A stretch of 64,000 nucleotides of DNA from a virus. The stretch is from the UHGV virus genome UHGV-1376965; one strand, written 5' to 3'. The notes under the pieces are model-generated. The model did not search any database and was not told the origin of the DNA. It saw only the letters and a list, made by a program, of their open reading frames with translations. A program made the position numbers and the translations under genes. Shown here piece by piece: positions 35,791 through 38,159 of the stretch; within the stretch, counting starts at the first letter, position 1; each line of letters opens with the position of its first letter.

Positions 35791-37161
35791 GTGCTAATGT
35801 CTGCATCCCCTCTTGAATCCATGCCAAATTCCCTTAGTGCAGAACAAGCTGTACTTGGTGGCTTAATGCTTGATAACTGCCGCTGGGATGAAGTTGCAGA
35901 TCGTATAGTTGCTGATGATTTTTATACCAGTGCTCATCGTGAAATTTTCAGTGAGATGGAGAGGTTATTAAGTCATGGCAAACCGATTGATTTGATAACA
36001 CTTGCTGAAGCACTTGAACAGAACGGTAAATTAGAACGCGCCGGTGGTTTTGCGTACCTTGCGGAGATGTCAAAGAACACGCCCAGCGCGGCAAATATTT
36101 GTGCTTATGCGGATATCGTTCGTGAACGCGCGGTTGTTCGTGAAATGATTTCCGTCGCAAATGAAATAGCCGAAGCTGGATATGCGCAGGATGGCAGGGG
36201 CAGCAATGAATTGCTGGATATGGCCGAGCGCCGCGTTTTTGAAATAGCTGAAAAACGACAAAAGAGCGGTAGTGGTCCAAAAGATATCGCCAGCATTCTC
36301 GATGCAACGGTATCTCGCATAGAAGAGTTGTTTCAGCGACCACATGATGGTGTAACGGGGCTTGATACGGGATTTACCGATCTCAATAAGAAGACGGCAG
36401 GGCTTCAGCCGTCCGATCTCATCATTGTCGCCGCCCGCCCATCTATGGGGAAGACCACGTTTGCGATGAATCTCGTCGAAAATGCCGCAGTTCGTAACGA
36501 TAAGCCCGTATTGGTTTTTAGCCTTGAGATGCCGAGCCACCAGCTGATGATGCGCTCACTGGCTTCTCTTGCACGCGTTGATCAGACTCGTATTCGGACA
36601 GGGCAACTTAACGACGAGGATTGGGCGCGGGTTTCTGGCGCAATGGGTATTCTGTTGGACAAGCAGAATATTTTTATTGATGACTCAAGCGCCCTGACGC
36701 CGACAGAGCTACGTTCCCGCGCTCGTCGTGTTTATAAAGAAAATGGTGGTTTGAGCATGATTATGATCGACTACCTGCAACTTATGCGCGTCCCCGAGCT
36801 GCAAGATAACCGAACGCTGGAAATTGCCGAGATTTCTCGCTCACTGAAGGCGTTGGCGAAGGAATTACAAGTACCGGTGGTGGCATTGTCACAACTTAAT
36901 CGATCGCTTGAACAGCGTGCGGACAAACGACCGGTAAATTCAGATTTACGTGAATCAGGAGCAATTGAGCAGGACGCAGACCTGATTATGTTTCTGTATC
37001 GCGACGAAGTTTATCACCCGGATAGCGAAATGAAGGGCATTGCCGAGGTAATTATCGGAAAGCAACGAAATGGCCCAATTGGCACGGTGAGATTGGCTTT
37101 TAACGGCCAATACTCACGGTTTGATAACTATGCCGGTGCTGACTGGCAAGAGGATTATTAA
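35791..37161 (+). CDS. ban: Replicative DnaB-family helicase (P1 Ban-like)
   Basis: 456 aa; Walker A (PSMGKTT) and Walker B (MIMIDYLQLM) blocks with DnaB-type N- and C-terminal regions. Confidence 0.9.
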   Translation: MLMSASPLESMPNSLSAEQAVLGGLMLDNCRWDEVADRIVADDFYTSAHREIFSEMERLLSHGKPIDLITLAEALEQNGKLERAGGFAYLAEMSKNTPSAANICAYADIVRERAVVREMISVANEIAEAGYAQDGRGSNELLDMAERRVFEIAEKRQKSGSGPKDIASILDATVSRIEELFQRPHDGVTGLDTGFTDLNKKTAGLQPSDLIIVAARPSMGKTTFAMNLVENAAVRNDKPVLVFSLEMPSHQLMMRSLASLARVDQTRIRTGQLNDEDWARVSGAMGILLDKQNIFIDDSSALTPTELRSRARRVYKENGGLSMIMIDYLQLMRVPELQDNRTLEIAEISRSLKALAKELQVPVVALSQLNRSLEQRADKRPVNSDLRESGAIEQDADLIMFLYRDEVYHPDSEMKGIAEVIIGKQRNGPIGTVRLAFNGQYSRFDNYAGADWQEDY

Positions 37162-38159
37162 TGCAATGGAATGAGGAAAAGCCGATGAACATCCTGATCA
37201 TTGGGCGAAAATTTGCAGCCATCAGTGATGTGAAAACATATACGGAAATGTGGTCTTATAACCTGGCCTGCGCCTTTAGTGAGGCAGGGGTAACATTGCA
37301 ATACCATCGTCCATATTCCCCTGGCGTCGAAAGCCCCGAGGATTATGTTGAAGCTGTGTTGACTGCTGCGACAGCATGTTCTGCGAAGGCCATTTTGGCA
37401 CCAGGATTGAGGTATTTTACTACGGTACCCAGGGAAATAGGCATGCAACTGTGTCGCCGATTCTCTGGATGGGTAGCCCAGGTATATGACGGTTCTATGC
37501 TGGATTCGGCACCAGTCGATATTACTTTTACTGTCCGCGATGATACCTGGCGGTACCTGGATAATCCCGGTCGGTTAGAACGTCATAATCGCTTTAACAA
37601 ACATGTTGGATGGGCAGCGAATCAGGAGCTGTTCCATCTGGAAACCAAAACGGACGATGTTCTGCGTATTTTTGTAGACCACGCTGCATTTGATGTTAGT
37701 GGGTTTGATCACTCCTTAAGTATCCTTATGAACCTTCAGCGTCTGACCGTTCCGTATGAGGCCAGAACGTTGACTGATGACGGATTGGTTACCATTGATC
37801 CGGGGAATATTTCGGTAACTCCATACAGGCGGACGCCGGTGCCAGCAACCGAATTTGCAGCTGAATTGCGTAAGAGTGACGTTTTTATCGTTACGCATCC
37901 CGAAAGCCTTGGATTAACTGTTCTTGAGGCGGCAATGTGCGGGGCGTTGGTATTAACGCCTCCCGATTGCCTTCCGCCAGATCGCCTGGCTTTGGTGAAC
38001 CATATGGTTATCAAGTCGCGGATTGATTGGGATGAGGTTATTGCTCGCGTTGATCGCGTGAAAAATGCTGAAAAGGTCCAGTGTCACACCTGGTCGGCAA
38101 TTGCGGAAAAGATGCTTGAGACGTTTATCACGCAGAAACCGTCGCGCGGTAACGGATAA
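37161..38159 (+). CDS. Glycosyltransferase-like protein (GT-B fold) translationally coupled to ban
   Basis: 332 aa; C-terminal HPESLGLTVLEAAMCGALVL resembles the GT-B nucleotide-sugar binding motif; start abuts the ban stop. Confidence 0.55.
   Translation: MQWNEEKPMNILIIGRKFAAISDVKTYTEMWSYNLACAFSEAGVTLQYHRPYSPGVESPEDYVEAVLTAATACSAKAILAPGLRYFTTVPREIGMQLCRRFSGWVAQVYDGSMLDSAPVDITFTVRDDTWRYLDNPGRLERHNRFNKHVGWAANQELFHLETKTDDVLRIFVDHAAFDVSGFDHSLSILMNLQRLTVPYEARTLTDDGLVTIDPGNISVTPYRRTPVPATEFAAELRKSDVFIVTHPESLGLTVLEAAMCGALVLTPPDCLPPDRLALVNHMVIKSRIDWDEVIARVDRVKNAEKVQCHTWSAIAEKMLETFITQKPSRGNG

Follow-up and report, generated by a model that had tools for sequence, protein, structure and literature searches.

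What does a glycosyltransferase-like protein act upon, and with which partners, when its gene begins exactly where that of a replicative helicase ends? The question is raised by an open reading frame (ORF) within a 64,000-nucleotide stretch of viral DNA (the window), which belongs to a P1-like phage-plasmid and is 99.9% identical to phage JL22 and 99.8% identical to P1. A first-pass annotation had reported 332 codons, a start at the stop of ban, the gene upstream in the same operon, and the motif HPESLGLTVLEAAMCGALVL; all are present, with the motif at residues 246-265 and the start overlapping the ban stop as TAATG. The ORF is the P1 gene dbn (AAQ14156 in the P1 annotation), and the earlier reading had overlooked that gene and label were already public, as "possible glycosyltransferase" since 2004 and as "glycosyltransferase family 4 protein" in RefSeq.

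Features of the window that bear on dbn, in order of position
Feature	Coordinates	Strand	Description
Oban / Op72ab	32596..32623	.	Bivalent C1 repressor operator; exact and 2-mismatch operator matches; P1 annotation
ban	35791..37161	+	DnaB-like replicative helicase; Pfam DnaB_C 5e-108, DnaB 2.7e-35; P1 annotation
GAGGA + TAATG junction	37150..37163	+	ban stop overlaps first dbn ATG
dbn ORF	37161..38159	+	332 aa from ATG overlapping ban stop; GT-B, GT4-like glycosyltransferase
dbn, conserved form	37185..38159	+	324 aa from Met9, the start common to homologs; GAGGA at 37173-37177
EX7E codons	37902..37928	+	E248-x7-E256, signature of retaining GT4 enzymes; within the motif of the first-pass annotation
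GC-rich hairpin	38180..38206	.	Between convergent dbn and baseplate gene 5; MFE -17.6 kcal/mol, z = -4.3
pmgO	44094..44756	+	Predicted MptE-like / GT42-WaaZ-like transferase; RefSeq 'alpha-2,3-sialyltransferase'; homolog of cassette partner A
pmgP	44654..45280	+	Second predicted MptE-like / GT42-WaaZ-like transferase; homolog of cassette partner B
ppp	45262..45954	+	Lambda-type Ser/Thr phosphatase between pmgP and pmgQ; Pfam Metallophos 9e-16
pmgQ	45951..46652	+	Predicted GT-A, GT8-like glycosyltransferase; invariant DxD; RefSeq 'glycosyltransferase'

We regard dbn as a real gene and not a chance ORF because its product is 99% identical to a cluster of 2431 protein sequences (for which the protein database lists PF00534), 77 of 78 full-length P1-like copies are intact, and codon position 3 holds 75 of the 120 variable sites, with a median dN/dS of 0.11. 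This selection analysis, and that of the junction with ban below, used the P1-like copies that dominate viral and metagenome scans.

The earlier call of a GT-B-like glycosyltransferase, to be dropped if profile and structure searches gave the fold no support, is supported by a Pfam match, an AlphaFold2 model and the EX7E motif. Pfam Glycos_transf_1 matches Dbn at E=1.5e-5 (25.0 bits, just short of the gathering cut-off of 26.4) over residues 229-315, corresponding to model positions 83-169 only. The AlphaFold2 model (pLDDT 88.6, pTM 0.86) is confident and has two Rossmann-like domains with an interdomain cleft, as in GT-B enzymes, and a Foldseek search of the PDB with this model returned MshA, GlgM, sucrose-phosphate synthase, BshA and PimB' at E ~1e-9. 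The EX7E motif aligns to the corresponding motif of MshA, PimA and WaaG; both glutamates are invariant in an 18-sequence alignment (Dbn and 17 homologs), and among 86 diverse homologs, down to 20% identity, E256 is invariant and E248 at least 90% conserved.

Sequence searches reach less far. The single Dbn protein gave no significant match in the PDB, and a profile of the 86 sequences gave PDB matches limited to the EX7E region; the best of these, an Actinobacillus glucosyltransferase (8xsg), was rejected as local only. NCBIfam holds no usable family for Dbn, and PHROGs places it in PHROG 2518, labelled 'unknown function'. Fusions within the Dbn family to a methyltransferase domain, to second GT1 domains and, by a weak match, to a hydrolase are suggestive only. 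In canonical GT4 enzymes, an Arg and a Lys after the first strand of the C-terminal domain usually bind the donor diphosphate. The stretch after this strand in Dbn (residues ~166-228) does not align to the Pfam model. Given that an invariant D173-H174 and D183 occur where the Arg and Lys would be expected, as far as that position can be inferred, the donor chemistry of Dbn may be atypical.

Distant homologs of Dbn point to its partners. When their neighbours were compared with the window by tblastn, they matched pmgO (1e-37), pmgP (5e-64) and pmgQ (1e-58), so that the conserved partners of Dbn, which the first-pass annotation had missed in the very same window, are apparently homologs of PmgO, PmgP and PmgQ and not the helicase. 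The gene order is O-P-(small GT-A)-Dbn-Q in loci L004 and L090, O-P-Dbn-Q in locus L089 and phage EP_H11, and P-Dbn-Q-O in locus L091; in a Citrobacter locus (L003), P-Q lies 4 kb upstream of the Dbn homolog. In the large phages (L149-L152), a PmgQ-like gene (profile E 1e-32 to 1e-37) is directly 3' of the Dbn-like gene. Dbn and Q are contiguous in L004, L089, L090, L091, L095 and L149-L152, amounting to at least nine phage loci from several unrelated lineages, with a stop/start overlap in nine of nine pairs, and the pair is usually preceded by PmgO/PmgP homologs. All cultured phages that encode a Dbn homolog encode homologs of PmgP and PmgQ as well. The converse fails, as homologs of PmgP/PmgQ occur without one of Dbn in Cronobacter phage JK004, Citrobacter phage phiNP and Xanthomonas jumbo phages; we found no paper on the sialyltransferase-like gene of phiNP.

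Among bacterial and metagenomic sequences, GT4-N-like, WaaZ-like and Dbn-like genes occur in a row in Brucella (L087), Colwellia (L092) and a metagenomic locus (L135). The Brucella and Colwellia loci, for which more of the surroundings can be seen, are within ABC-transporter polysaccharide clusters, and that of Colwellia also has a KdsA-family gene. Scanning genome contigs for divergent loci yielded three, one of them useful; single-protein scans of viral contigs for such loci gave nothing or remote matches, and the neighbours of the Citrobacter-type homologs (231 aa and 167 aa) had no family match.

All four genes of this set are present in the window, where dbn (37.2 kb) is parted by 5.9 kb, a minus-strand block of baseplate and tail genes, from pmgO-pmgP-ppp-pmgQ (44.1-46.7 kb). 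The Oban / Op72ab operator stands at the head of the ban operon, and a further C1 operator is located between gene 26 and pmgL. Beyond dbn, the GC-rich hairpin, whose stability was reached by none of 200 shuffles, is probably a bidirectional terminator that ends the ban operon. Given that tblastn found no Ppp in the cassette of the non-P1 loci examined, ppp is probably not part of the glycosyltransferase module. A CRISPRi screen and a knockout library found dbn, pmgO, pmgP, ppp and pmgQ to be nonessential (PMC10695390).

Profile searches suggest what the partners are. The PmgO/P profile matches the CstII sialyltransferase at E 1.4e-6 (0.008 if built from phage sequences only), with LOS sialyltransferase and Maf also among its matches, and for E. 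coli WaaZ the score is 43 bits with the bacterial partners but 18 bits with the profile from phages only; these assignments of PmgO/P look weak once the bacterial sequences are removed. The PmgQ profile matches GT8 enzymes, namely Skp1 alpha-galactosyltransferase (5e-5) and glycogenin (3e-3), and its DxD is invariant.

Taken together, we consider it probable, from gene neighbourhoods and profiles, that Dbn belongs, together with PmgQ and PmgO/PmgP, to a dispersed and nonessential module whose enzymes build a glycan in the lytic phase. Dbn would be a soluble, cytoplasmic GT-B enzyme of the retaining GT4 type, with two Rossmann domains, transferring sugar from a host nucleotide sugar to the growing glycan; host donors are presumed because the P1 module has no sugar-activation or export genes. 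Its functional partners would be PmgQ, a GT8-like GT-A enzyme, and PmgO/PmgP, which resemble CstII, WaaZ and Maf and whose superfamily takes ulosonic acids, for instance Kdo or sialic acid, in CMP-activated form. What elsewhere appears as one contiguous, translationally coupled cassette would be split in P1, and since the P1 genes belong to different operons, their joint function is drawn from other genomes. Because the operons are repressed in the lysogen, the module should act in lytic growth. What we infer is that Dbn is catalytically active, that all four enzymes work on one glycan, and when they do so. While dbn itself is a known gene, its link to the PmgO/P/Q module appears to be new: in the literature we searched, dbn is named in two places only, a table of essentiality from a CRISPRi screen and a transcriptome preprint, and we found no paper tying it to pmgO/P/Q. 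Tentatively, we suggest more broadly that one conserved module for glycan assembly is common to P1 and many unrelated phages, ranging from lambdoid prophages to large phages (on contigs as long as 281 kb). In lytic growth, it would decorate virions or the LPS receptor with a glycan that is made by the phage and may contain ulosonic acids.

As to the acceptor, the reading we entertain first, without holding it to be likely in absolute terms, is the virion or another soluble, protein-linked glycan: Dbn, PmgQ and PmgO/P would put a short glycan on a head, tail or fibre protein of P1 during lytic growth. The module is carried both by temperate phages and by large phages that look lytic, and a lytic-cycle function therefore fits all carriers. 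In lambdoid loci, the terminase and head genes follow it immediately; in P1, pmgO-Q are among tail genes behind an annotated late promoter, and dbn adjoins baseplate gene 5. The large-phage clusters (L149-L152) bring in a pyruvyl transferase, a methyltransferase and a nucleotidyltransferase, and one member of the Dbn family carries a fused methyltransferase domain. Among viral structures, Dbn is matched best by a Tupanvirus glycosyltransferase (TM 0.77-0.81), and its N-terminal, acceptor-side domain is mildly acidic (pI 6.1, compared with 9.1 in WaaG and 8.8 in WaaB). Glycosyltransferase clusters of mycobacteriophages and giant viruses are precedents for glycosylation of virions. However, glycans are unmentioned in two recent cryo-EM studies of P1, one of the head and one of the tail and baseplate, and the paper on the P1 virion proteome is silent, in its main text, on these genes and on glycosylation. 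All four genes are dispensable for plaques, and the C1-controlled ban operon, unlike pmgO-Q, has no annotated late promoter.

A second reading, only a little less likely than the first, is that sugars are added at the cytoplasmic face of the inner membrane to the LPS core, which is the P1 receptor, or to another lipid-linked envelope glycan; receptors on infected cells and debris would then be masked, or surface antigenicity altered. The three families of the module are those of the E. coli LPS-core set, namely GT4 (WaaG, WaaB), GT8 (WaaO, WaaJ) and WaaZ; among the waa proteins, the PmgO/P profile matches WaaZ only and the PmgQ profile matches WaaJ best. The bacterial Dbn homologs (38-52% identical) are found in lipid-linked polysaccharide clusters with ABC exporters, and, among proteins of solved structure, PmgO/P are most closely related to lipo-oligosaccharide sialyltransferases. 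P1 infection is described as requiring a glucose-containing LPS core (galU; Franklin 1969, as cited in PMC12373910), which favors the envelope. Disfavoring it, the operons are repressed in lysogens, thus making classical lysogenic conversion unlikely, and the Dbn-Q pair is carried by large, apparently lytic phages. The comparison with LPS transferases proposed in the first-pass annotation did not help this case either: the sequence match of Dbn to WaaG and WaaB (hhalign, family profile) is confined to the surroundings of EX7E, and its N-domain does not share their basic character. The phages known to seroconvert their hosts use other types of enzyme, GtrABC and acetyltransferases.

Of the acceptors considered, DNA is the least likely, and we find it improbable that Dbn adds a sugar to P1 DNA against restriction in the manner of the T4 alpha- and beta-glucosyltransferases or the HY126 arabinosyltransferase. 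PmgO and PmgP are basic (pI 9.3-9.5) and dbn adjoins a replication gene, as might be expected of such a function, but the adjacency of dbn to ban is not conserved. A comparison with DNA glucosyltransferases, also proposed earlier, placed Dbn no closer to them than to generic GT-B enzymes: T4 alpha-glucosyltransferase (GT72) comes only 24th among the structural matches, outranked by many generic GT4 enzymes, and the top 60 do not include T4 beta-glucosyltransferase (GT63). Known DNA glycosylation requires a hydroxylated or hydroxymethylated base pathway; we know of none in P1, and no base-hydroxylation gene is annotated in the parts of the P1 genome examined. Moreover, digestion of P1 DNA with ordinary restriction enzymes is routine.

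It is very improbable that Dbn is a decaying relic, a glycosyltransferase-like fold that has lost its activity. The gene is nonessential, the usual Arg/Lys donor-binding motif is not recognisable in the protein, and the P7 copy is interrupted by a stop at codon 22, counted from Met9 (the annotated P7 start lies downstream). Set against this are the intact copies and the low dN/dS given above, and a polar set (D110, D173, H174, D183, H246, E248 and E256) conserved across a family of 377 representative clusters.

There remains the helicase. The ban TAA (37159-37161) and the first dbn ATG (37161-37163) have one base in common, and the 82 P1-like loci show TAATG in 72 cases and TGATG in 2, so that a stop/start overlap is kept in 74. 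In the other 8, a 101-aa inserted ORF uses the ban-overlapping ATG, and dbn begins 300 nt farther downstream, at Met9. The equivalent of this Met9 (MKILIIG; ATG at 37185), 24 nt downstream of the overlapping ATG, is the first residue in all 17 aligned non-identical homologs. Given that the homologs and the inserted-ORF loci both start dbn there, the first eight codons are a P1-specific leader. Both ATGs (37161 and 37185) have a GAGGA 6-7 nt upstream, and therefore either could serve as the start. Outside the P1 group, tblastn found a Ban homolog in none of the Dbn-homolog loci examined, and no Dbn homolog is near a DnaB-type helicase. Thus, the most remote of all the readings, that Dbn is co-made with Ban in order to modify the helicase or replisome, draws on the TAATG overlap and the GAGGA 6 nt before it, and is already contradicted by comparative data, including the stop/start coupling of Dbn homologs elsewhere to other glycosyltransferases. 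The pairing with the helicase, put forward earlier as unexpected, does not appear to be so, nor to be meaningful, and a joint function with Ban is not supported by these comparisons. We conclude that dbn closes an accessory operon that is mosaic and repressed by C1, and that only gene-order mosaicism has placed it there; the tci genes upstream of ban are replaced in the window.

A helicase-coupled glycosyltransferase, as first framed, would be an ordinary and already annotated gene. The glycan-building module would matter more, as P1 is among the most used phages in genetics and dbn, pmgO, pmgP and pmgQ have no assigned role. If the module is real, four "unknown" or "morphogenetic" genes would be reassigned, several pmg genes being sugar transferases, and a modification of the virion or of the LPS receptor would have been overlooked in a model system. 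P1 would then have its first described glycosylation system, and a Dbn-like gene followed by a PmgQ-like gene would serve as a marker that recurs in very different metagenomic phages. Glycosylation of virion or receptor would affect adsorption, immune recognition and host range, with consequences for P1 transduction tools and for resistance-carrying P1-like phage-plasmids.

Compared with known retaining GT4 enzymes (BshA, MshA, PimA/PimB', sucrose-phosphate synthase, GlgM, WaaG/WaaB), which have 360-440 aa, Dbn is short (324 aa), its sequence likeness is confined to the EX7E region, and the first half of its C-terminal domain departs from the family model, with an invariant Asp-His and Asp instead. 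The LPS/LOS core enzymes (WaaG/WaaB of GT4, WaaO/WaaJ of GT8, the Kdo III transferase WaaZ and C. jejuni CstII of GT42) belong to the same three families as Dbn, PmgQ and PmgO/P. However, the homology is remote, the P1 genes are not in a waa-type locus, the N-domain of Dbn is not basic, and the P1 set would be expressed in the lytic phase whereas the core enzymes are constitutive. The T4 alpha/beta-glucosyltransferases and the HY126 DNA arabinosyltransferase are no closer to Dbn than generic GT4 enzymes, and Dbn has transferases of the glycan type, and no base-modifying enzymes, as its conserved partners. Seroconverting prophages (GtrABC, O-acetyltransferases) likewise carry phage genes that alter a glycoconjugate; their membrane GT-2/GT-C enzymes act in the periplasm, with folds and topology other than those of the Dbn set, and are produced in lysogens, in contrast to the C1-controlled dbn and pmgO-Q. 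Similar to the P1 set, the virion-glycosylating clusters of mycobacteriophages and of Mimivirus and Tupanvirus fibrils comprise several viral glycosyltransferases and no exporter, and loci related to the P1 module add methyl- and pyruvyl-transferases. Unlike them, P1 has its genes split between two operons and no glycan reported on its virions.

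The ORF that the first-pass annotation had flagged as a glycosyltransferase-like gene starting at the ban stop is present as described, as is the motif quoted for it (Dbn residues 246-265), and it is dbn of phage P1 (short for "downstream of ban"). Over positions 35700-38300, the window matches Escherichia phage JL22 at 99.9% identity and phage P1 at 99.8%. GenBank AAQ14156 describes its product as "function unknown, possible glycosyltransferase"; elsewhere it is named glt (P7), "putative glycosyltransferase, Dbn" (RCS47) and "glycosyltransferase family 4 protein" (RefSeq). Given that the gene and the guess at its function are both already public annotation, the finding as first stated is ordinary. 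What our analysis adds is a conserved Dbn-PmgQ(-PmgO/P) module, which we did not find described in the searchable literature and which can be put to direct test in a model phage.

The gene evolves under purifying selection. Among 78 full-length P1-like copies from viral and metagenome contigs (48 nucleotide alleles), dbn is intact in 77, the median pairwise dN/dS is 0.11, and third codon positions account for 75 of the 120 variable sites. The sole disrupted copy, in phage P7 (AF503408), carries a stop at codon 22 when numbered from Met9, which is why the annotated glt begins 45 codons in; this copy is either a pseudogene or the product of a sequencing error.

Features of the ban-dbn and pmg regions; locations are window positions unless a contig is named
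Feature	Location	Strand	Remarks
Bivalent C1 operator	32596-32623		Start of ban operon
Terminator-like hairpin with T-run	32786-32808	+	Strong
Swapped accessory cargo slot	34363-35407	+	Ban operon, between tRNA genes and trnI
dbn ORF	37161-38159	+	332 aa
Codons for Dbn D173-D183	37677-37709
GC-rich hairpin	38180-38206		Between convergent dbn and baseplate gene 5; -17.6 kcal/mol, z = -4.3
pmgM	43352-43930	+
pmgO	44094-44756		Cassette-protein match 39% identity, 1e-37
pmgP	44654-45280		Cassette-protein match 54% identity, 5e-64
pmgQ	45951-46652		Cassette-protein match 47% identity, 1e-58
pap	48289-48795	+
101-aa ORF	L077:5702-6004		Between ban and dbn; starts MQRKLTKRNKNWLSDML...

The proposed glycosyltransferase fold was borne out computationally. 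Pfam Glycos_transf_1 aligns to residues 229-315 (E = 1.5e-5; 25.0 bits, narrowly missing the gathering score of 26.4), an AlphaFold2 model (18 homologs; pLDDT 88.6, pTM 0.86) consists of two alternating strand/helix halves, and Foldseek retrieves MshA, GlgM, sucrose-phosphate synthase, BshA and PimB' from the PDB with E of about 1e-9 to 1e-7. The EX7E signature of retaining GT4 enzymes is represented by E248 and E256, which align with the EX7E residues of MshA, PimA and WaaG. Neither varies in a close alignment; in a wider set of 86 homologs, with identities as low as 20%, E256 still never varies and E248 is at least 90% conserved. As far as computation can tell, Dbn is a glycosyltransferase. 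Of the predicted viral structures, the closest to Dbn is that of a 315-aa Tupanvirus glycosyltransferase (E 1e-17, TM 0.77-0.81); the compact Dbn-type fold may extend to the giant viruses of eukaryotes. That protein (BFVD A0A6N1NPH0, Tupanvirus soda lake) is 17% identical to Dbn and stands far ahead of other viral matches.

To place Dbn in its neighborhoods, we read the gene context around divergent homologs. A Ban homolog is absent from all non-P1 loci examined, leaving unsupported the functional meaning that had been attached to coupling with the helicase. Three lambdoid-type contigs (L004, L089, L090) carry the Dbn homolog near GpA terminase and portal genes; in these, in contig L091 and in Escherichia phage EP_H11 it is part of a tight cassette in which the stops and starts of neighboring genes overlap. 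Searched back against the window, the cassette proteins gave strong matches about 6 kb downstream of dbn, to three genes annotated in P1 with "putative morphogenetic function": pmgO, pmgP and pmgQ. Writing O, P and Q for their homologs, gene orders outside P1 are O-P-(small GT-A)-Dbn-Q, O-P-Dbn-Q and P-Dbn-Q-O, and a Citrobacter phage-plasmid has a P-Q pair 4 kb upstream of its Dbn homolog. The small GT-A-like protein (189 aa, weak Nucleotid_trans match) is encoded directly upstream of the Dbn homolog at L004:5435-6004 and L090:6435-7004; it has relatives in L150 and L152 and no counterpart in P1.

The pairing with PmgQ also holds at greater distance. Four large-phage contigs (L149-L152, 87-281 kb), which also hold terminase, RecA-like and DEAD helicase genes, encode Dbn-like proteins of 29-33% identity to Dbn, and in all four the Dbn-like gene runs at its end into an overlapping PmgQ-like gene (profile E 1e-32 to 1e-37). 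Around this pair lies a bigger sugar-gene cluster, with a CTP_transf_like plus MannoseP_isomer protein (nucleotidyltransferase/isomerase), a polysaccharide pyruvyl transferase, methyltransferases and weak GT8/GT47-like genes. Two remote metagenomic loci show the same pairing. PmgP and PmgQ homologs accompany Dbn in all cultured phages in which a Dbn homolog occurs (P1-like phages, Escherichia phages EP_H11 and IME392, and two Stenotrophomonas jumbo phages), but the reverse is untrue: PmgP/PmgQ homologs without Dbn are found in Cronobacter JK004, Citrobacter phiNP and Xanthomonas jumbo phages. By this distribution, Dbn seems to be an optional addition to a PmgP/PmgQ core. In JK004, a P1 relative, the pmgO, pmgP and pmgQ homologs are directly adjacent (11447-13378), with no ppp phosphatase gene between, and no Dbn homolog was found across the whole genome at E 1e-3.

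Searching 1.84 billion representative proteins with a family profile returned 377 clusters at E <=1e-3 and 129 at E <=1e-30, nearly all of them unnamed metagenomic proteins. Most members are 300-340 aa; the few fusions include one with a methyltransferase domain and others with a second GT1 domain. A pattern scan of one genome per bacterial species found three loci only. Brucella pseudogrignonensis (38% identity) and a Colwellia metagenome bin (40%) each have consecutive GT4-N-like, WaaZ-like and Dbn-like genes inside polysaccharide clusters that contain ABC-2/ABC transporter, Poly_export, other GT1, GlmS and KdsA-family genes, and the trio recurs at a further locus, from a metagenome (52% identical).

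Invariant G-P-S, N, D and L-x-G-x-D motifs are common to PmgO, PmgP and these bacterial neighbors; they also give sub-threshold Pfam matches to MptE-like. Their joint profile matches the Campylobacter jejuni sialyltransferases CstII (E 1.4e-6) and CstI, another lipo-oligosaccharide sialyltransferase and Maf; with a phage-only profile, the top PDB match is still CstII (E = 0.008). The LPS-core Kdo III transferase WaaZ of Escherichia coli reaches 43 bits against the bacterial partners and 18 bits against the phage-only profile, to which it is the only clear match among 14 waa-cluster proteins (next is WaaQ, 5 bits). PmgQ homologs have an invariant DxD (D79, D81), and their profile matches the GT8 enzymes Skp1 alpha-galactosyltransferase (5e-5) and glycogenin (3e-3), with WaaJ as the best waa protein. 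RefSeq independently labels pmgO "alpha-2,3-sialyltransferase" and pmgQ "glycosyltransferase". Two nearby genes do not look morphogenetic: P1 pap, which hits the HAD-type phosphatase domain of polynucleotide kinase-phosphatase (PF25109, 4.5e-12), and pmgM, with a VRR-NUC nuclease match below threshold (21.3 versus 23.8 bits).

Translational coupling of dbn to ban, as first proposed, is formal only. The stop of the DnaB-type helicase ORF (end 37161) does overlap the first ATG as TAATG, with a GAGGA 6 bases upstream, but all non-identical homologs start at the equivalent of Met9 (M-K/N-I-L-I-I-G), the first strand of the fold, whose ATG at 37185 has another GAGGA 7 bases upstream. Residues 1-9 of the model are without secondary structure and of lower confidence (block pLDDT 60). 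Moreover, in 8 of 82 P1-like loci (L077-L081, L083-L085) a separate 101-aa ORF, matching no Pfam family, opens at the ban-overlapping ATG, joined to the ban stop by TGATG and to the Met9 start by an ATGA overlap. Because it resembles the first and last few codons of this ORF, the eight-codon leader in the window is probably its deletion remnant.

The ban operon is a mosaic: in the slot of P1 tciA, tciB and tciC, the window instead holds a 78-aa ORF, with weak, sub-threshold matches to membrane-protein families and nothing stronger, followed by a 275-aa SPFH/Band-7 protein (Pfam Band_7, 1e-30). About 170 nucleotides downstream of the Oban operator, within the region that P1 annotates as dicF-like, is a terminator-like hairpin through which ban/dbn transcription must read. 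Given C1 operators at both the ban and pmgL-Q operons, and an annotated late promoter at the latter, dbn and pmgO-Q would be expected to be expressed during lytic growth.

The simplest reading is that Dbn belongs, as one sugar transferase, to a set of four glycan-building enzymes carried by phages as a cassette; in P1 this cassette is interrupted by the minus-strand baseplate/tail genes 5, 6, 24, 7, 25 and 26. No sugar-activation or export genes lie beside dbn or pmgO-Q in P1, so host nucleotide sugars would serve as donors. None of dbn, pmgO, pmgP, ppp and pmgQ is needed for plaque formation (PMC10695390). The acceptor may be the virion or another soluble target, as suggested by the module's presence in lytic-type large phages, its position adjoining head or tail genes, the accompanying pyruvyl- and methyl-transferases, the giant-virus source of the best viral structural match and the mildly acidic Dbn N-domain; two P1 cryo-EM studies make no mention of glycans, however, which argues against abundant virion glycosylation. 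It may equally be the LPS core or another envelope glycolipid: enterobacterial core assembly draws on exactly the three families of the module, the bacterial Dbn homologs sit in lipid-linked polysaccharide clusters, and the LPS core is the P1 adsorption site. DNA, which the first-pass annotation had also considered, is the least likely acceptor.

Dbn departs from canonical GT4 enzymes, in which an Arg/Lys motif binds the donor diphosphate. The first half of its C-terminal domain is without a match to the Pfam model, and the Arg/Lys motif is unrecognisable; at its expected place, judged from the secondary structure of the model, are D173-H174 and D183. These residues are invariant in the family, and D110 and H246 are invariant or nearly so. 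This conserved Asp/His set, where canonical enzymes have Arg/Lys, might reflect an unusual donor or a metal requirement.
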